Source: a virus
Virus record (IMG/VR): IMGVR_UViG_3300016476_000256
Location: 1-64,000 of that record
Length of the DNA: 64,000 nucleotides
Direction: 5' to 3' (one strand)
A program made the translations under genes and the position numbers. Positions 20,988 to 64,000 of the stretch are shown piece by piece. The notes under the pieces are model-generated. The model ran no database searches, was not told the DNA's origin, and worked only from the letters and a program-made list of their open reading frames with translations. Within the stretch, counting starts at the first letter, position 1. The number at the start of each line of letters is the position of its first letter.

Positions 20988-21005
20988 GTACTGTGTCATA
21001 CTATT
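20988..21005 (+). promoter_or_regulatory. early promoter-like motif, copy 1 (GTACTGTGTCATACTATT)
   Basis: Core starts 41 nt upstream of the ATG at 21029. Followed by the conserved leader AACCATTAAA..ATTTA. Confidence 0.6.
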
Positions 21006-21028
21006 CATAACCATTAAATACATTTACC

Positions 21029-21217
21029 ATGAAGTTTTACTATGCAACTATTACAGATTACTCAGGAAAAGAAGTACTCACATTGCAATACACTGCTACT
21101 GCTAAACATGCAGCATTCTTAGCAAAGCAATACATAGACTACTGCCCACCTGCTGCTGGCTTTAAGATCCGCATGATGATACTCAAAGCTACTGATATTG
21201 TTAGGCTCCTAAACTAG
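21029..21217 (+). CDS. hypothetical early protein
   Basis: 62-aa ORF behind motif copy 1. Confidence 0.55.
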   Translation: MKFYYATITDYSGKEVLTLQYTATAKHAAFLAKQYIDYCPPAAGFKIRMMILKATDIVRLLN

Positions 21218-21235
21218 GGGCTTAACAATGTTATG

Positions 21236-21253
21236 GTACTGTGCTTTACTACT
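21236..21253 (+). promoter_or_regulatory. early promoter-like motif, copy 2 (GTACTGTGCTTTACTACT)
   Basis: Core starts 40 nt upstream of the ATG at 21276. Confidence 0.55.
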
Positions 21254-21275
21254 AATAACTATTAAATTTATTCTT

Positions 21276-21461
21276 ATGGAAACAACTGTAATTTGTGATT
21301 ATTCTAATTCTCATGATGTCCTAACAAAAGAAGAAATTCTTTTACTTCACATCTTTGAGTATGGTGGACCTGGTATACATGAAGAACCAATTGAGTTTTG
21401 GGAACCAAGGAGTTGGGAAAACCCAAGGTACTATGTTGAAGAAGATGAGCTGCCTTGTTAA
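21276..21461 (+). CDS. hypothetical early protein
   Basis: 61 aa (METTVICDYSNSHD...). Start moved from 21228, because the longer ORF would include the promoter motif and leader. Confidence 0.5.
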   Translation: METTVICDYSNSHDVLTKEEILLLHIFEYGGPGIHEEPIEFWEPRSWENPRYYVEEDELPC

Positions 21462-21476
21462 GGTGGCTCTTGTTTA
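21447..21476 (+). terminator. hairpin terminator candidate
   Basis: GAGCUGCC/GGUGGCUC stem (8 bp including 2 G-U pairs), then TTGTTTAT. Overlaps the stop codon. Confidence 0.4.
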
Positions 21477-21481
21477 TACAG

Positions 21482-21499
21482 GTACTGTGTTATACTACT
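21482..21499 (+). promoter_or_regulatory. early promoter-like motif, copy 3 (GTACTGTGTTATACTACT)
   Basis: Core starts 41 nt upstream of the ATG at 21523. Confidence 0.6.
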
Positions 21500-21522
21500 A
21501 ATAACCATTTAAATTATTTATC

Positions 21523-21672
21523 ATGAAAAATTTTAAGCACTATGCACTTGCTGTTGTATCTATGGGTTGTATAACAGGTTTACTTATTTCTATGGGATCT
21601 CAGATCTTATTAGCTATGGGAGTTATGTCATTATTTTGGGCGGGAATGTTTGCACCAATGTTAGGGGATTAA
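21523..21672 (+). CDS. small membrane protein (49 aa)
   Basis: Hand-translated as MKNFKHYALAVVSMGCITGLLISMGSQILLAMGVMSLFWAGMFAPMLGD. Not in the track because it is under 60 aa. Confidence 0.5.
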   Translation: MKNFKHYALAVVSMGCITGLLISMGSQILLAMGVMSLFWAGMFAPMLGD

Positions 21673-21686
21673 GTTCCCCTTTTGTT
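21663..21686 (+). terminator. intrinsic terminator
   Basis: AGGGGA/TCCCCT stem, then TTTGTT. Confidence 0.55.
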
Positions 21687-21689
21687 ATT

Positions 21690-21707
21690 GTACTGTGTTA
21701 TACTATT
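21690..21707 (+). promoter_or_regulatory. early promoter-like motif, copy 4 (GTACTGTGTTATACTATT)
   Basis: Core starts 42 nt upstream of the ATG at 21732. Confidence 0.6.
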
Positions 21708-21731
21708 CTTAAACCATTAAAACTATTTACT

Positions 21732-21956
21732 ATGGATTATTTAAAACACGCTGCGTTTATTTGTATTAGCTTTGAAGAACAATCTGTTTATCCACCTTAT
21801 GGAATAAATGACTGTAATGGAAAGTTAGAGTGTACAGACCCTAATAAATACATTCAAAGAATTGCAAAAGAAATACAAGATGCACATGAGCAAGGTTTTG
21901 AGAAACTAATTATCAAGTGGAACACTGTTAGGGGTCTACATGTAATAGGGGAGTAA
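21732..21956 (+). CDS. hypothetical early protein
   Basis: 74 aa (MDYLKHAAFICISFEEQ...). Start moved from 21567 for the same reason as above. Confidence 0.55.
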   Translation: MDYLKHAAFICISFEEQSVYPPYGINDCNGKLECTDPNKYIQRIAKEIQDAHEQGFEKLIIKWNTVRGLHVIGE

Positions 21957-21967
21957 TCCCCTTTTTT
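21947..21967 (+). terminator. intrinsic terminator
   Basis: AGGGGA-GTAA-TCCCCT (6-bp stem, GNRA-type loop), then TTTTTT. Confidence 0.65.
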
Positions 21968-21975
21968 AAATACAG

Positions 21976-21993
21976 GTACTGTGTCTTACTATT
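21976..21993 (+). promoter_or_regulatory. early promoter-like motif, copy 5 (GTACTGTGTCTTACTATT)
   Basis: Core starts 42 nt upstream of the ATG at 22018. Confidence 0.6.
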
Positions 21994-22017
21994 ATTGAAC
22001 CATTAAAAGTATTTATT

Positions 22018-22179
22018 ATGTTAGTAGAAATGATTATTGCACAAATCAGAGCAGAACTTATTAAAGCAAAACAAAAACCGGATACCAAGTATCTTAACTC
22101 ATTAAAGCAGTTAAAGAGAAAGGACTTGTATGTTTTGCTAGATTCCTATAAACAGGAGAACAAGCTTATGGTTGATTAA
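22018..22179 (+). CDS. hypothetical early protein (53 aa)
   Basis: Hand-translated as MLVEMIIAQIRAELIKAKQKPDTKYLNSLKQLKRKDLYVLLDSYKQENKLMVD. Confidence 0.5.
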   Translation: MLVEMIIAQIRAELIKAKQKPDTKYLNSLKQLKRKDLYVLLDSYKQENKLMVD

Positions 22180-22200
22180 GGGGGAAACCCCTTTTTTCTT
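22178..22200 (+). terminator. intrinsic terminator
   Basis: AAGGGG-GAAA-CCCCTT hairpin, then TTTTTCTT. Confidence 0.65.
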
Positions 22201-22209
22201 TTAATACAT

Positions 22210-22227
22210 GTACTGTGTCTTACTAAT
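22210..22227 (+). promoter_or_regulatory. early promoter-like motif, copy 6 (GTACTGTGTCTTACTAAT)
   Basis: Core starts 33 nt upstream of the ATG at 22243 (shorter leader). Confidence 0.55.
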
Positions 22228-22242
22228 CTTAAAATTAAAACT

Positions 22243-22425
22243 ATGATTGCAAAACTTATTTTCACTTGGTACCTAATTACAGGTACAGTTCAACCTATTG
22301 ACAATGTTGATGGAAGAACAATCTATGCTATGCCTGATTCTAATATAGAGTATGCTTATGAAGCAGAACTTATAGAGTATATAGAGACAGGCACATTTGA
22401 GTACAATGAAGACTTGGAGGATTAA
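22243..22425 (+). CDS. hypothetical early protein
   Basis: 60-aa ORF behind motif copy 6. Confidence 0.55.
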   Translation: MIAKLIFTWYLITGTVQPIDNVDGRTIYAMPDSNIEYAYEAELIEYIETGTFEYNEDLED

Positions 22426-22438
22426 TTCCTCTGAGTCT

Positions 22439-22456
22439 GTACTGTGTCTTACTACT
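22439..22456 (+). promoter_or_regulatory. early promoter-like motif, copy 7 (GTACTGTGTCTTACTACT)
   Basis: Core starts 42 nt upstream of the ATG at 22481. Confidence 0.6.
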
Positions 22457-22480
22457 GTTAAATAATTAAACCTAAATATT

Positions 22481-22630
22481 ATGGAAGAACAAATATGTAC
22501 ATATTGTGGAGTAGGAGAATTAGAAACCTACTATGATGACTGGACTGATAGTTACTTTACAGAGCAAGTCTGCCAAGGTTGTTTAGCAGAGGACTATTAT
22601 GAAAGCTTAAATGAAAGTAAAGGGGAGTAA
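22481..22630 (+). CDS. small CxxC..CxxC protein (49 aa)
   Basis: Hand-translated as MEEQICTYCGVGELETYYDDWTDSYFTEQVCQGCLAEDYYESLNESKGE. Two CxxC pairs suggest a zinc ribbon. Confidence 0.5.
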   Translation: MEEQICTYCGVGELETYYDDWTDSYFTEQVCQGCLAEDYYESLNESKGE

Positions 22631-22648
22631 TATCCCCTTTTTCTTTTT
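22621..22648 (+). terminator. intrinsic terminator
   Basis: AGGGGA-GTAATA-TCCCCT hairpin, then TTTTCTTTTT. Confidence 0.65.
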
Positions 22649-22741
22649 ATCCACACGGTGGAGCAAGTAGACTTTAGTGCTGATAATCAGGTAGTTAGAA
22701 AATGTAATGTTTTACCCAAAATACCTCCACACTAGTCCACC
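22647..22741. promoter_or_regulatory. DnaA-box-like cluster
   Basis: Perfect TTATCCACA at 22647-22655, plus ACCTCCACA (22723-22731) and TAGTCCACC (22733-22741), in a ~140-nt non-coding gap. Confidence 0.3.
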
Positions 22742-22770
22742 ACACTTAAGAGGCTTTGCCGTCTTTTTTT

Positions 22771-22788
22771 GTACTGTGTTCTACTACT
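22771..22788 (+). promoter_or_regulatory. early promoter-like motif, copy 8 (GTACTGTGTTCTACTACT)
   Basis: Core starts 57 nt upstream of the ATG at 22828. Its flanks are similar to those of copy 9. Confidence 0.55.
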
Positions 22789-22827
22789 ATTGTTGTTTTA
22801 TTTATTAACCCATTAAAATTTATTAAA

Positions 22828-23115
22828 ATGGAAAAAATTGTAAGTGGTATTTTGGTTTCTTGTTCTGACAATTCTAAACCTAATGTTAACGGTACAATGT
22901 ACCATAACTGTACTGTTGAGCACAACGGGGAACAGTACAGTGCTGTTATGTATGCTACTGTGTATGACCGTGGCATTGCTGTTGGTAGCACAGTTAACTT
23001 CAGTGTTAAAGTTACCAATCCTGAAACAGGTGATGTTATATTATCTGTGTTAGGTACAGGTGCTAAACGCGCTACTGCAGGTGCATTTGGCATTGAAATT
23101 CCTGCTACTGTATAG
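22828..23115 (+). CDS. hypothetical early protein
   Basis: 95 aa (MEKIVSGILVSCSDNSKPNVNG...). Start moved from 22756. Confidence 0.6.
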   Translation: MEKIVSGILVSCSDNSKPNVNGTMYHNCTVEHNGEQYSAVMYATVYDRGIAVGSTVNFSVKVTNPETGDVILSVLGTGAKRATAGAFGIEIPATV

Positions 23116-23128
23116 TAGGGTTCAACAA

Positions 23129-23165
23129 ACAGGGTATGTCTACAAAGGCATACTCTGTTTTTTTG
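23129..23165 (+). terminator. strong intrinsic terminator
   Basis: 12-bp stem 23129-23140/23147-23158 (2 G-U pairs), loop TACAAA, then a T-run at 23158-23165. Confidence 0.75.
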
Positions 23166-23194
23166 TTTAATACAAGAGCTTCGCGTCTTTCTTG

Positions 23195-23212
23195 GTACTG
23201 TGTTTTACTCCT
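23195..23212 (+). promoter_or_regulatory. early promoter-like motif, copy 9 (GTACTGTGTTTTACTCCT), no ORF behind it
   Basis: Same core and flanks as copy 8. The next ~170 nt contain no ORF, but they do contain the direct repeat GTTAAC(A)CCGGTC twice (23223-23235 and 23244-23255). Confidence 0.45.
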
Positions 23213-23364
23213 CTTGTTGTTAGTTAACACCGGTCTACAACCTGTTAACCCGGTCAACACTTGTAAAACTTATGAATTAAAATAAATTCCGAAATAAGTT
23301 TGTTTAAATAAGTGTATGTAACTAACTGATTATTAACCCCACTTATTATCCTTACTTAATTATC

Positions 23365-23382
23365 CTACTGTATTTTACTATA
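23365..23382 (+). promoter_or_regulatory. early promoter-like motif, copy 10, variant (CTACTGTATTTTACTATA)
   Basis: Degenerate copy, 72 nt upstream of the ATG at 23437. Confidence 0.4.
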
Positions 23383-23436
23383 CTAGTATAGTATAGTTAA
23401 GGATTTTATATAGCTAACCCTTTAATCTTATTACTT

Positions 23437-23664
23437 ATGCATAGAGCTACTTACTTCCTATATGGAGTACTATTCAGTCTTATACTATATACTGTGTTTT
23501 ACTCTATAAGAAAGACAGATAGAAAGACTCCGGTCAAAGGTATAGACCGAGAATATTATTTAGAAGTTTCCCAAGATAGTATTTGGGTTGAATCTAGATA
23601 TGGAAAAATTTACAGTGGTAAGTATTCAGACTTAGACAGTCTTATTACCATTGATAACTTGTAA
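23437..23664 (+). CDS. small membrane protein
   Basis: 75 aa with an N-terminal TM helix (YFLYGVLFSLILYTVFYSI). Confidence 0.5.
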   Translation: MHRATYFLYGVLFSLILYTVFYSIRKTDRKTPVKGIDREYYLEVSQDSIWVESRYGKIYSGKYSDLDSLITIDNL

Positions 23665-24412
23665 TTAATTGCAATATAGTTTCTAACAGCCAGTAATGGT
23701 CATCCGAAGGTAGAGCTATAAGTTGAGAAGGATATACTTATCTAGGTATTGCAATTATTTATCCTGAGCATGATATAAAACTGCTCTTATTATTCTAAAA
23801 TTCTAGTTATAATTAACTGGTAATATGACAGCTTAGACAACTGTATTCCTATACTAGATAGGTTCTTATTGCTCACGCTAGTGACTTGCGTGTAATAAAT
23901 TAAGACTGTCTTATGATATATATAGAGTTACCTGGAATATGGTTGCACGGCTTGTTGGTACATCGTGTGTAAAAGAAAACAACCTTCTATGGGATGAAGT
24001 CCTACACCTAAGCAAGTGTTTAAACTGCTTTTATTTACTCTCATCCAAGCAGGATGTATATTCTATGATTGTTTTCCAAAGAATAACATTGGTTATATAT
24101 CTACCCATGACTTATGATGTCCGGAGGGTGTGTATATCAAGGGTTGCAACCTTGTGAGAGTATTATTAATGCACCATTCCTGATTCCCAAGGTCAGGCAG
24201 TTGTAGAAAATATAGCGGGTCTGAATTAACAGACTACATTGCTGAAAGCTGAGAGGTTACTAAAGTACACAGTGTAAAATAAAACACCTCGCTATTAGTA
24301 TATTACAAGTTACTTAATCCTTAAAAGGAAGATAATTGGAATATACACTACAACTGAGTGCAGAGGGGTATTTAACTTATAGAAACTTAATTATTAACTC
24401 AAAACTAAACTT
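23665..24412 (+). other. region without a credible ORF, locally GC-enriched; candidate structured RNA or origin
   Basis: About 750 nt with only one atypical 72-aa ORF. Several local hairpins (24042-24056, 24179-24197, 24219-24234). Long-range complementarities: 23666-23676/23747-23757 (11 bp) and 24198-24206/24348-24356 (9 bp). Bipartite motif TTATGAT-N23-GGTTGCA occurs twice, 201 nt apart. Confidence 0.3.
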
Positions 24413-25786: not shown

Positions 25787-25850
25787 TTATATTTGCGTGC
25801 ACCTATAACCGCAATAAACAGATGAAAGGTGTTATAGTCTGTTTAATATT

Positions 25851-25924
25851 GGTCCTGTAGCTCAGCTGGATAGAGCAACTGCCTTCTAAGCAGTAGGTCT
25901 TTGGTTCGAATCCAAACAGGATCA
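25851..25924 (+). tRNA. tRNA-Arg: tRNA-Arg (anticodon UCU)
   Basis: Cloverleaf folded by hand: acceptor GGTCCTG/CAGGATC (one G-T pair), D arm GCTC/GAGC, anticodon stem ACTGC/GCAGT with loop CTTCTAA, variable loop AGGTC, T arm TTTGG-TTCGAAT-CCAAA, discriminator A. No encoded CCA. Confidence 0.9.
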
Positions 25925-25942
25925 CTATTATTAACTAAACCT

Positions 25943-44088: not shown

Positions 44089-44844
44089 ATGAAACATGTA
44101 TTACAACCAGGAGAAATAATCAAAAATAAGTTTGACATTGAAACAAAACTGCAGTATTTAAGTGAAGCAGGTTACAAAGGAAAGGGTATGAGATATATCA
44201 ATGTCTTATGTACTTCTTGTAATACTGAGCACATAAAACAATTTGCTTCAATAAGAGCTGGTTATATTACATCTTGTGGAAACAAGTCTTGTAAAATTTC
44301 TATAAGTCCTTTACATAAAGTTATTTATAAGAAAGGAGATGCTGTGAGTTCTAGCTTAATATATCTTGAAGAAGATGCTGAAAGAACAACTAGTAATCAT
44401 AGATATTTTAAAGTACAATGTACTTGTGGAGAAATATTTAGCACAAGAGTGGATAGAAAGAAAGACTGTTGTACAAAATGCAGTTTTAAAGAAAAAAGAG
44501 AAACATTAACTGATTCAAATAAGAAAGCTTTAATTAATTCATTACTTCAATCTTATAAAAAGAATGCTGAATTAAGAGGTTATAAGTTTGAACTTACTGC
44601 TGATGTTTTTGAGAGTTACTTGTTTGCTTCTTGCTATTACTGTGGAGTTTTACCAACAAATAAAATTCAAAAAGGTAATAAGTCTATTTACTATAATGGT
44701 ATTGATAGAAAAGATAATACTCTTGGTTATGAAGGTGATAACTGTGTTACCTGTTGTGGAAAGTGTAATATGATGAAGAATAAATATTCTCATGATGACT
44801 TTATATTACACATTAAATCTATTATTAACAATTTAAACTTATAA
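44089..44844 (+). CDS. HNH homing endonuclease
   Basis: YCGVLP...YYNGIDRKDNTLGYEGDNCVTCCGKCNMMKNK is a classic HNH_3-type motif. Cys-rich N-terminal DNA-binding region. Confidence 0.75.
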   Translation: MKHVLQPGEIIKNKFDIETKLQYLSEAGYKGKGMRYINVLCTSCNTEHIKQFASIRAGYITSCGNKSCKISISPLHKVIYKKGDAVSSSLIYLEEDAERTTSNHRYFKVQCTCGEIFSTRVDRKKDCCTKCSFKEKRETLTDSNKKALINSLLQSYKKNAELRGYKFELTADVFESYLFASCYYCGVLPTNKIQKGNKSIYYNGIDRKDNTLGYEGDNCVTCCGKCNMMKNKYSHDDFILHIKSIINNLNL

Positions 44845-48001: not shown

Positions 48002-48021
48002 GGGGAAGGTAATACTTCCCC
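48002..48021 (+). terminator. hairpin (GGGGAAG-GTAATA-CTTCCCC), terminator candidate
   Basis: 7-bp stem with the same GTAATA loop as the hairpin at 22621. Weak T-run. Confidence 0.4.
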
Positions 48022-61338: not shown

Positions 61339-64000
61339 TTATCTTTTACAATTCATATAATAATCTAGAGCATCAAAGATATCTAAATCTGGGTTTTTAG
61401 TTGCTTCATTTGTAAACCAATTTTTAAATTCTGGTTTATTTAGTGTGTTGATTTTTTCTTGCTTTTCCTGTGAGGTTTCTAATTCTATTTCCTGACTTTC
61501 CATTTCTTCATTGTACATGAACTCATTTAAGTTTGTTCTATTTAAGAAACTATCAGTTAATACTTGTAACACCTGCTTATCAGACAATAGATTTAAGATA
61601 AAGTTAGTGAACTTTTTCCACCAATTGTAGGCATCTCCTTTTTGTTTTACAACTTGTTCTCCAATTGCCTGTACTAATGCCTCTTCACTACCAAATCTTT
61701 TAATACCTTCTTGAACAATAGGCGTATTTCTAAACCATGCAATATAGTGGTGAGCATACTCATGTGGTAATGTATCTTGTCTTTGATTTACAGCATCAAT
61801 TAATACTGTCATAGCTTTAATATTAGCTTGACCTATAATTTTATTAGCTTCATTTTTTTGTAATAATACATTTTGTAAATCTCTAGCTTGGTTAATTGTT
61901 ACCTCATTCCAAGTATTACCATACTCATCTGTAAATTTTGTAGGTGTATAGCCTTGTTTTTTAAGAACATTAGCCACTACATTTTCATAGAAGTTGTAAA
62001 TTGGTTTTAAAGCACCAAATCCTTCTGGTCCTTCTACTCTTTCAAGTTCTTGTTTAAGTTGGTTTATTTCTCTCTCTGTAGCTTCTCTTTGAAGTTCTCC
62101 TTTTTTACCTTTATCATATATCTCTTTAGTTATTTCTATAACTGATTCCCCTCCAAATTGACCGGCTTGTAAATCTTCCCAATAATATTTTCCATTTTCT
62201 TCAAAGTAATAGTTAGGAGATAATTCATAGTTATAGTCATCCATTCCTTCTTCAAGCTCTTTAATCCTATCTTCTTTTTGTTTTTTAAACTCCTCTAAAG
62301 TAGTATGACCTTCAACCTTACTAGCTGTATCACCAGAAGGAAACAACACTTTTTCATATCCTTTCTTAGCACTATCTTGTATAATAGATTTAATAAAGAA
62401 GTTTACCCAGTTATTGTCTTTGTTTAGAAGTTGTAGGAATTGATTGCCTTTTTGAGGATCTTCAGTTAATCCTAAAAATTTAGCTGCTTCTTTTCTAGTA
62501 GGAAATGTATCTAATATTCCAATTCTACCATTATGAGCTTCCCATTCTTTACCATTAAATTCAATCCACTCTTCATCTCCACTATAAGAATCTGTACCTA
62601 TTTCACTAATTAAATCCTCTCTATCTCTACCTTTCTGAAATAAATCAGATTGTACTTCTAGTATTCTACGGGTTTTAGTAGGTGTTCCTTTTTGTAAATA
62701 ATTTATATTACCATATTGATTATCATATATAGCATATACATCAGTATCTGTTAAATCATCTCTTTTATGAGTTATACCATCAGAGTCTATACTATACCAG
62801 ATATTATTTCTTTTTTCCCAAATACTCCCATAATTACCTTTAAAAGATAAAGGATATTCTTTAGATGTAATAAATTCATCATCACTTCTAAACCAACCTA
62901 TACCATTCTCTGTAGCAAACTGAGCATGCCCTTTAATATTAGGAACAATACCCGGTGTTGTTACTTCTTGTTCAGTATAGTTAGTACCACCTGGGACTTT
63001 TAGATTAGAATAGTATTGTGTATTTTCTCCTTCTGAACCTACAATAAAAGATTCTCTTTGTTCTAAACCTGAACTTCCCCAACTATCATCTTCAAATCTT
63101 GTACCTGTTATTTTCCATTGTTTATTATCAATAGTAATATAATCTCCAATTTTTTTATTAGGATATTTATCAACCCAAACATTACCAAAAGCATCTTCAA
63201 TTTTATCTTTAGAAGTATTAATCTCAATAGTATAGTTATAAGTAGAAGCAATAGCATATGCAAGTTGAGCATTAAAAGGTATGCCTTCAAAGTATGGCAT
63301 TGTTTCTATTACTTTTTCTATAAGTTCTTTTTGATTTTTAGGTATCTGAAGTTCTGTTAAGATTTTATCCAGTGTCCATTTATTTTTAATACCCTTAGCA
63401 AATACTTGATCAGCTTTTGGTGTAAGTAAAATATCAACTGTTTTAATCCTATAGTTTACTTGATTATTGTACTGCTCTTGATTAAGTACATTATTACCTT
63501 CTTCCCAAACTGGAGTATTGCTAATGTTTAATTTAATCTCAGGATATAGTTTTTCAAGTTTGTCTTGTATTTTTTTAGCAAGTTCTTTATCAAACTTCTG
63601 ATTTGGATTTATACTGCGTTGATTAAATAAATCTAATTGCTCACCTGGTTGTGGACCTTGTTTAGGTTGAGTAGTTCTAGATTTACTCCATGTTCCTATT
63701 TTTACACCATCTATTGTAATCTCAGAATAGTTATAACCTTTGGCTTCAAGATTTTGGAACAATCTTTTTTCTCCGGTGTTGTAAGTATTTTTAGAATCAA
63801 AAGTATAAGCTTTATTATCTACGAGAATAGTTGCTCCAGCTTCTATGGCTTTAATTGCTTCTCTGATTGTCTTATCCTGTTCTCTTTTAACAATAGCTAC
63901 ATCACCTCTTAGTCCAGGAACAGATACAAAGATTACATCAGTACCACTGTATTTACCAGTATTTGCCAAAATGCCAACTTGCTCTCTATATATTTGAGTA
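61339..64000 (-). CDS. second large protein with HExxH motif (5' end probably outside the window)
   Basis: The track gives 876 aa from a TTG at 63969, but the frame stays open to position 64000. HEYAH at 61750-61764. 5-nt gap to the 2065-aa ORF. Confidence 0.55.
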   Translation of the reverse strand, partial: TQIYREQVGILANTGKYSGTDVIFVSVPGLRGDVAIVKREQDKTIREAIKAIEAGATILVDNKAYTFDSKNTYNTGEKRLFQNLEAKGYNYSEITIDGVKIGTWSKSRTTQPKQGPQPGEQLDLFNQRSINPNQKFDKELAKKIQDKLEKLYPEIKLNISNTPVWEEGNNVLNQEQYNNQVNYRIKTVDILLTPKADQVFAKGIKNKWTLDKILTELQIPKNQKELIEKVIETMPYFEGIPFNAQLAYAIASTYNYTIEINTSKDKIEDAFGNVWVDKYPNKKIGDYITIDNKQWKITGTRFEDDSWGSSGLEQRESFIVGSEGENTQYYSNLKVPGGTNYTEQEVTTPGIVPNIKGHAQFATENGIGWFRSDDEFITSKEYPLSFKGNYGSIWEKRNNIWYSIDSDGITHKRDDLTDTDVYAIYDNQYGNINYLQKGTPTKTRRILEVQSDLFQKGRDREDLISEIGTDSYSGDEEWIEFNGKEWEAHNGRIGILDTFPTRKEAAKFLGLTEDPQKGNQFLQLLNKDNNWVNFFIKSIIQDSAKKGYEKVLFPSGDTASKVEGHTTLEEFKKQKEDRIKELEEGMDDYNYELSPNYYFEENGKYYWEDLQAGQFGGESVIEITKEIYDKGKKGELQREATEREINQLKQELERVEGPEGFGALKPIYNFYENVVANVLKKQGYTPTKFTDEYGNTWNEVTINQARDLQNVLLQKNEANKIIGQANIKAMTVLIDAVNQRQDTLPHEYAHHYIAWFRNTPIVQEGIKRFGSEEALVQAIGEQVVKQKGDAYNWWKKFTNFILNLLSDKQVLQVLTDSFLNRTNLNEFMYNEEMESQEIELETSQEKQEKINTLNKPEFKNWFTNEATKNPDLDIFDALDYYMNCKR

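Follow-up and report, generated by a model that had tools for sequence, protein, structure and literature searches.

A patch-switching 21-base unit heads the small-gene cassettes of a freshwater crAss-like phage and is a candidate promoter for its injected RNA polymerase

The small-gene array and its setting

The window analyzed here comprises the first 64 kb (64,000 nucleotides) of the IMG/VR record IMGVR_UViG_3300016476_000256, a complete genome of 113,498 bp from an uncultured freshwater crAss-like phage that belongs to a distant group. Our subject is an array of nine small open reading frames (ORFs) and of the repeated 21-base unit that precedes eight of them (Table 1). The array opens the non-structural arm of the genome, adjoining the divergence point and preceding the replication genes. 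The portal and the large terminase have their matches in the crAss-type PHROGs families 6547 and 6681, and a related terminase is encoded by at least 598 IMG/VR contigs, which indicates a large environmental group. A comparison of the array DNA with 50,697 phage records returned a tRNA as its sole match, and a scan with Rfam returned nothing apart from the tRNA. In what follows, G000 denotes the present genome, and G001, G002, G004, G006, G011 and the L-numbered contigs are the relatives with which it was compared.

Table 1. Units, genes, hairpins and non-coding elements of the array, by position in the window (aa, amino acids; nt, nucleotides; pN/pS, ratio of nonsynonymous to synonymous change).
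Feature	Position	Strand	Description or basis
Unit P1	20988..21028	+	9-mer GTACTGTGT, TACTA box, leader to ORF1 ATG; orthologues in relatives are of types B-E
ORF1	21029..21217	+	62 aa; family F5, 7 arrays; pN/pS 0.44
Unit P2	21236..21275	+	GTACTGTGC variant
ORF2	21276..21461	+	61 aa from the leader-set ATG; family F18, this genome only among the compared arrays
Hairpin and T-run after ORF2	21447..21469	+	terminator scan
Unit P3	21482..21522	+	motif alignment
ORF3	21523..21672	+	49 aa, hydrophobic; family F7, 3 arrays
Hairpin and T-run after ORF3	21663..21680	+	ORF3 stop codon in loop
Unit P4	21690..21731	+	motif alignment
ORF4	21732..21956	+	74 aa; family F8; in three genomes, behind units of types A, B and C; pN/pS 0.32
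Hairpin and T-run after ORF4	21947..21962	+	AGGGGA-GTAA-TCCCCT
Unit P5	21976..22017	+	motif alignment
ORF5	22018..22179	+	53 aa; core family F2, 10 arrays; pN/pS 0.23
Hairpin and T-run after ORF5	22178..22194	+	terminator scan
Unit P6	22210..22242	+	short leader
ORF6	22243..22425	+	60 aa; core family F3; predicted alpha-beta3-alpha fold, acidic tail; pN/pS 0.22
Weak 5-bp hairpin, no T-run	22416..22431	+	overlaps ORF6 end; kept in all relatives
Unit P7	22439..22480	+	motif alignment
ORF7	22481..22630	+	49 aa, CxxC...CxxC; family F19
Hairpin and T-run after ORF7	22619..22640	+	terminator scan
Conserved 130-nt non-coding element	22641..22770	+	between ORF7 terminator and P8; ends in hairpin and T-run; no unit upstream
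Unit P8	22771..22827	+	long leader
ORF8	22828..23115	+	95 aa; core family F1; predicted OB fold; pN/pS 0.36
15-pair hairpin and T-run after ORF8	23127..23160	+	terminator scan
Unit P9	23195..23215	+	type switches with the other units; without an ORF at the usual spacing
Conserved structured leader or non-coding RNA after P9	23216..23436	+	stem 23228-23232 / 23249-23253; hairpin 23348-23404
ORF9	23437..23664	+	75 aa, hydrophobic N-terminus; without its own unit; pN/pS 0.38

A repeated unit restricted to the array

The unit has the 21-base consensus GTACTGTGy-nn-TACTm-n-T-nn-T, followed by an A/T leader, and nine true copies lie on the + strand between 20988 and 23210. In the alignment of these copies, GTACTGTGy is followed by two free bases, TACTA, nTnnT and the leader (often AACCATTAAA..TATTTA), which runs to the ATG. 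Eight of the nine stand 23-46 nt upstream of an ORF of 49-95 aa, with a fixed spacing to the start codon, and the leader itself is unstructured and carries no Shine-Dalgarno sequence. Its conservation resets the starts of three genes, moving ORF2 to 21276, ORF4 to 21732 and ORF8 to 22828.

At up to two mismatches, the sequence GTACTGTGTNNTACT matches the window 14 times where 2.4 matches are expected, a number reached by none of 100 shuffles, and 11 of the 14 fall on the + strand within 20988-23503. When the whole genome is searched at no more than one mismatch, all 10 matches are in the forward direction and inside that same interval, and the reversed control gives 0. In the replication module we found neither a copy of the unit nor a second promoter motif. 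Exact-pattern scans of IMG/VR returned chance single matches only for the 14-base core, zero matches for the extended unit in the version carried by this genome (type A, below) and, for the P9 leader, just two relatives, both already known.

Coding capacity of the small genes

The ORFs of the array are real coding genes under purifying selection, with pairwise pN/pS values of 0.22-0.44 for families F1-F6, 0.32 for ORF4 and 0.38 for ORF9; six of the nine ORFs have values in the range 0.22-0.44. The family of ORF6 is widespread and consists of proteins of about 60 aa in 67 representative clusters at 50% identity; members are also present in G001 and G002, where they lie outside any array. For ORF8, a scan of metagenomes with an alignment of the protein yielded 31 loci, to which IMG/VR added more, and ORF7 has two relatives, each of 49 aa, with identities of 88% and 80%.

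A sequence-only reading of this region, made before the present analysis, had described nine micro-genes, each with its own promoter-like motif and hairpin terminator, and had proposed that they act in host takeover or anti-defence. The proposed role gained no support from our searches, in which none of the nine micro-proteins had a significant match in Pfam or PHROGs. Nor did structure prediction, suggested there as a way to recognize known anti-defence folds, lead to one. The model of ORF8 is an OB barrel (predicted local distance difference test, pLDDT, 88) with best matches to IF1, PriB and SSB; their Z values of 7-7.8 are in a range that shows fold and not function. ORF6 is confidently predicted as a helix, three strands and a helix (pLDDT 94.8), and this model has zero fold matches in PDB and BFVD, so that no known anti-defence fold can be claimed for it. 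Other details of that description stand: ORF7 has its CxxC pairs at residues 6-9 and 31-34, and the membrane-type character given to two of the peptides agrees with the hydrophobic ORF3 and the hydrophobic N-terminus of ORF9. The nine ORFs likewise exist, and eight have their own unit, but ORF9 has none and P9 has no ORF.

Terminator-like hairpins as cassette boundaries

Between 20 and 26 kb, the array region contains 13 terminator-like sites against 2.6 expected, a five-fold excess, and no such enrichment is seen in the 19-kb replication block (9 against 6.5 expected). The hairpin terminators assigned to every gene by the sequence-only reading are present, with a T-run, after ORFs 2, 3, 4, 5, 7 and 8, but ORF1 and ORF6 are followed by a weak hairpin without a T-run and ORF9 by none. 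The sharing of hairpin sequences holds for the sites at 21663, 21947 and 22621 (family D7), and the hairpin reported at 48002 is confirmed as well.

At the hairpins after ORFs 3, 4, 5 and 7, the stop codon lies within the loop of the terminator or next to it, and the 5' arm of the stem is formed by the terminal Gly-Glu or Gly-Asp codons. The C-terminal codons thus form part of the hairpin, and the 3' boundary of the cassette therefore constrains the C-terminus of the protein. Many protein families of the relatives likewise end in GE or GD.

Exchange of cassettes between related phages

The 11 related arrays hold 25 ORF families. Those of ORF5, ORF6 and ORF8 (F2, F3 and F1), together with the ORF-less ninth unit, are found in nearly every array and in constant order, and the remaining families, located between them, vary in presence. 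The unit directly 3' of ORF6 illustrates how the exchange proceeds: across ten arrays it has two leader versions, one of which precedes F20, F12, F9 or F22 and the other F8, F15 or F25. Since few leader versions stand before many ORF families, the ORF must have been exchanged with precise limits at the ATG and the terminator, leaving the regulatory boundary where it was. These observations support a region of self-contained promoter-leader-ORF-terminator units that evolves by cassette gain, loss and replacement, as had been anticipated from this one sequence. Duplication of whole cassette boundaries, which had been suggested along with it, agrees with the shared sequences but is not the full account, in that part of the signal switches in concert between close relatives.

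Concerted switching of a five-base patch

Across 13 contigs, the unit exists in five versions that differ at positions 1, 2, 3, 5 and 6. Type A (9-mer GTACTGTGT) is that of the present genome; type B (TAACTGTGT) is found in G006, L225 and L231; type C (TCACCTTGT) in L221, L226, L227 and L378; type D (TTACCTTGT) in L229; and type E (TCCCCTTGT) in L230, L232 and L384. The type of the contig is borne by 106 of the 109 units, the exceptions being one type C unit each in L225 and L229, plus the mixed L228.

The remaining positions follow two other patterns. Positions 4, 7, 8, 12-15, 18 and 21 are invariant (C4, T7, G8, TACT at 12-15, T18 and T21), and positions 10-11, 16-17 and 19-20, together with the leader, vary among the cassettes of one genome and are kept between orthologous cassettes; positions 1, 2, 3, 5 and 6 vary between types only. 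In our first per-position table, the pattern used for selection fixed positions 1-9 and 12-15. When units were detected again by TACT and a following ORF only, the same uniformity was obtained in the other genomes, the check in G000 being confounded by the TACT contained in GTACTGTGT itself. Two look-alike sites, at 23365 and 23489, keep their sequence across types in the relatives, and one of them belongs to a conserved palindromic hairpin; because neither switches with type, we do not count them as members.

The type is uncoupled from the ancestry of the genes. One gene clade comprises G000 (A), L225 (B), L226 (C) and L229 (D), whose DNA identities are 97-100% in ORF6 and 91-99% in ORF5; within it, ORF6 is 100% identical between G000 and L226 despite their different types. 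A second gene clade unites G006 (B), L221 (C) and L230 (E). No family encoded in the array tracks the type: F1-F3 follow the gene clade, and the length of F5 is independent of type. Ordinary gene-conversion tracts are disfavoured because a 6-base patch is uniform while the neighbouring bases stay cassette-specific. The simplest account, in our view, combines free recombination of cassettes among co-occurring phages with selection that matches each patch to a type-specific trans-acting reader.

The foreign-type units (C in the B array of L225, C in the D array of L229, and the mixture of B and C in L228) result either from the recent import of a cassette or from chimeric assembly of strains that occur together. 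We also considered an antisense RNA as the partner of the patch and dropped this idea, having found no reverse-complement copies of any patch beyond chance in G000 or G006.

A virion RNA polymerase as candidate reader

In the full record, an ORF of 3841 aa on the minus strand (61339-72864) carries the motif DFDxD at residue 2202; its catalytic part, at roughly residues 1300-3050, is conserved with G006. With its catalytic region as the query, tblastn matched 82 phage records, all of them crAss-like and phi14:2 among them, and wherever the matched gene is named by function it is the RNA polymerase gene, as for crAss001, crAss002 and Carjivirus communis. The 3841-aa protein and a 2065-aa protein had no match in a PDB sequence search or in PHROGs. 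The genome contains no Sigma70_r2 or Sigma70_r4 domain, and a search for a T7-type RNA polymerase with PF00940 gave no match, in the control genomes either.

Comparison with four relatives, in which whole modules are swapped, indicates how this protein and the unit are distributed together. G006, with a large terminase (TerL) 93% and a virion polymerase 91% identical to those of G000, has the same array with type B units. G002 and L234, with polymerases about 46-56% identical, carry 2-7 copies of a looser homologous unit, ACARCTTnnnACTnnTAnGGATA, mostly after hairpins. G001 has head, packaging and replication proteins 80-98% identical to those of G000, and a terminase 94% identical, and possesses neither the motif nor the array; its giant virion proteins are replaced, at 31% identity for the 2065-aa protein, 35% for the polymerase and 27% for a 2215-aa protein. 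The array in G006, the looser unit in G002 and L234 and the lack of either in G001 therefore mean that the signal follows the virion block and not the backbone.

The virion block itself spans 55136-97668 in G000, where its genes are 27-50% identical to those of G001 or absent from it, and the flanking genes are 80-98% identical; from these sequences, it looks like a modular exchange of the set of ejected proteins. Between G000 (A) and G006 (B), residues 2501-2600 of the polymerase are only 60% identical, but these genomes differ by gene clade as well. The C-terminal part of the 3841-aa protein, about 790 residues (61339-63720), has also been swapped between the two, at 13% identity; the G006 version (L277:18683-19900) holds a NADAR domain (E 2e-11), and the G000 version matches nothing.

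Interpretation of the unit

Taken together, these findings make the unit a strong candidate for a promoter of the phage's own injected RNA polymerase. In our assessment, the chances are slightly better than even that the units are early promoters with a specificity patch that is read by an injected RNA polymerase of the crAss type. Each tiny gene would then be its own transcription unit: a 21-base promoter, a leader and an ORF, in most cases followed by a terminator of the intrinsic type. This promoter would have two parts, a constant core common to all relatives and a patch (positions 1, 2, 3, 5 and 6) that is uniform per genome. Its reader would be a phage-encoded protein present at the start of infection, most likely the 3841-aa virion RNA polymerase, injected with the DNA, and the specificity of the polymerases, or of co-injected factors, would differ between phage lineages in step with the patch. 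Leaders and terminators would supply the homology through which recombination moves ORFs freely between the arrays of co-occurring phages, and a unit of the wrong type would be selected against. Early expression is plausible by analogy and fits both the position of the array and crAss-like biology.

An extension of this reading is more tentative, and we would sooner doubt than assert it. It holds that at least five mutually orthogonal transcription types exist among co-occurring, near-identical phages, each defined by a five-base patch matched to an injected two-barrel RNA polymerase or to a co-injected factor, and that, in a mixed infection, each phage would express its own early genes only, so that cassettes crossing between types would stay silent until they acquired the resident patch.

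Several points weigh against the reading of the units as promoters for the injected polymerase. For the homologous polymerase of phi14:2, no common early motif was found, and it was active on single-stranded templates only. The link to the polymerase is a covariation of whole modules across four comparisons, and several further giant virion proteins lie in the block that is swapped, where other injected proteins could equally be the reader. Arrays of types C, D and E all lie on short contigs, none of which also carries a polymerase gene, and the pair that can be compared, G000 and G006, is separated by gene clade in addition to type. Promoter function, timing and the identity of the reader are deduced from sequence, and that a two-barrel virion polymerase stops at a hairpin with a T-run is an assumption. 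Finally, the motif is absent from the replication module, which crAss001 and phi14:2 transcribe in the early or middle phase.

In an alternative reading, the constant core would be a promoter for either polymerase, phage or host, and the patch would be an operator or an RNA-level site for another phage factor made after infection, such as a repressor that shuts off the early genes, an activator, a type-specific RNA-binding protein or an endoribonuclease acting on the 5' leader. A constant core beside a variable patch is what a promoter with an adjacent operator would look like, and the concerted patch demands some type-specific trans factor, not a polymerase specifically. Yet the patch lacks palindromic symmetry, and single strands of the unit DNA form no hairpin (-0.2 to -2.7 kcal/mol, z-scores -0.3 to +1.2). 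Moreover, no array-encoded family varies with the type, antisense copies of the patch are lacking in G000 and G006, and no sigma-type DNA-binding domain was found, other regulator families not having been searched genome-wide. We therefore regard an operator or RNA-level site as unlikely, while giving it appreciable weight. The same lack of structure led us to drop a hairpin promoter of the kind used by phage N4.

It is improbable, in our judgement, that the units are promoters for the host polymerase, with its primary or an alternative sigma factor, and that the uniform patch reflects functionless short-tract conversion or hitch-hiking. Middle-phase and late-phase genes of crAss-like phages do use the host polymerase (bioRxiv 10.1101/2020.03.07.982082), and the A/T-rich units have a TA-rich box whose distance from the ATG is plausible. 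However, they contain neither TTTG nor the TAnnTTTG box of the Bacteroidota consensus, the host being assumed to be a member of that phylum. Sigma-70-like sites are not enriched (26 against 27.7 expected), and 596 Gb of bacterial and archaeal genomes yielded 8 isolated matches to the extended type A or B unit, at the level of chance, and no array. Conversion would have to copy 6 bases and yet spare the cassette-specific positions 10-11 and 16-20; patches differ between phages with identical cassette genes; and G001, with the same backbone, lacks the unit altogether. The window does contain Bacteroidota-type -7 boxes (TATATTTG) at 25788 and 44059, both intergenic, before tRNA-Arg(TCT) at 25851-25925 and before an ORF at 44089, and these are likely host-polymerase promoters, in contrast to the units of the array.

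Very improbable is a role of the unit mainly as a recombination signal for ORF cassettes, comparable to integron attC/attI, with transcription coming from elsewhere: ORF replacements do have as their exact limits the leader-ATG junction on one side and the terminator on the other, a single leader can stand before four or five unrelated ORF families and three arrays are of mixed type, but the fixed ATG spacing and single orientation suit expression signals better, a type-specific patch is useless for homology-driven exchange, and no recombinase is found among the ORFs listed beside the array, a genome-wide search not having been made.

Relation to known systems

The closest parallel in layout is provided by the promoter-early stem-loop (PeSL) elements of T4-type phages, which are mobile regulatory cassettes (PMC2839356, PMC4122927). 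In both systems, the early region is hyperplastic, and its small ORFs, whose function is unknown, are each flanked by a terminator stem-loop and an early promoter (a putative one here). In the present array, six hairpins with T-runs stand directly upstream of the next unit, and it is at such composite motifs that the inserted, deleted or replaced segments end when close relatives are compared. The PeSL promoters, however, are early promoters of the host sigma-70 kind, whereas the signal described here is unlike a host promoter and its patch switches in concert; the phage, moreover, is crAss-like and not a T4-type myovirus.

Phages of the T7 group (T7, T3, SP6 and K11) have many phage-specific promoters of about 20 bases per genome, with a constant initiation part and a few specificity positions. 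As in the unit described here, the specificity positions are uniform within a phage, different between relatives and located beside a constant core. The systems differ in that our candidate reader is a giant two-barrel virion protein, and in that the switch is seen between phages with 92-100% identical cassette genes, far closer to each other than T7 is to T3.

Among crAss-like phages, the virion polymerase gp66 of phi14:2 transcribes the early genes, and no common motif was found upstream of them (bioRxiv 10.1101/2020.03.07.982082; Nature 2021). The present phage resembles it in its giant DFDxD protein, homologous to the gp66 region, its small early genes and its long non-coding early stretches, but here a sharply conserved unit heads what we take to be the early cassettes. 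The early promoters of N4 are DNA hairpins read by an injected virion polymerase with a T7-like domain (PMC4496689). Like our array, N4 has a small number of phage-specific promoters where its early region begins, short early genes and a polymerase carried in the virion (promoters and polymerase being candidates here); unlike the units, its promoter is a hairpin with a 5-7 bp stem and a 3-nt loop, and the candidate polymerase here belongs to the two-barrel class. Similarly, Thermus phage P23-45 has a single-subunit two-barrel virion polymerase, fused to the tape measure, that reads its own A/T-rich pre-early promoter (PMC10770324). There, too, an A/T-rich motif upstream of the pre-early genes occurs only in relatives with that polymerase, but the phage group and the motif are unrelated to ours, and no specificity types within a lineage have been reported.

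No promoter for a crAss-like virion RNA polymerase is named in the literature we searched, and the term "promoter" is absent from a 2023 review of the order. Promoter-terminator cassette arrays and specificity pairs of promoter and polymerase are known kinds of system; what is new here is the concerted types of the specificity patch. The array offers a precise 21-base promoter candidate and five natural specificity variants on near-identical backgrounds, which are material for a clean biochemical test. If the polymerase reading is correct, this would be the first promoter, with a natural specificity set, for a crAss-type virion polymerase. It would also reveal promoter and polymerase diverging within a freely recombining phage population and leaving five-base islands of divergence, explain the shuffling of early-gene cassettes and possibly provide orthogonal expression parts for Bacteroidota. 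If that reading fails, the region would still be a well-documented crAss-like counterpart of the PeSL system of T4.

Non-coding elements around the last units

The 130-nt element between the ORF7 terminator and P8 is kept in all relatives with an array and, in part, in the array-less G004 and G011. It holds GTAGACTTTAGTGCTGATAAT, which is similar to the looser unit of the distant relatives; possible identities of the element are a small RNA and a relic promoter.

The 220 nt that follow P9 are conserved as strongly as coding sequence. The first stem in this region has a variable loop, and the long hairpin is built around a perfect 16-nt palindrome, ACTATACTAGTATAGT (23377-23392), with a minimum free energy z-score of -2.3. 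Downstream of this leader come ORF9 and then a 750-nt ORF-poor stretch with no strong terminator, an arrangement from which we infer that P9 may head a long transcript that enters the replication module.

A second motif, TATCCTGAGCATGATATAAAACTGCTC, occurs once in the ORF-poor stretch, at about 23755-23782, and three times in the early region of G001 (L219), where it lies 50-85 nt before ORFs; it is common to phages with unrelated virion polymerases.

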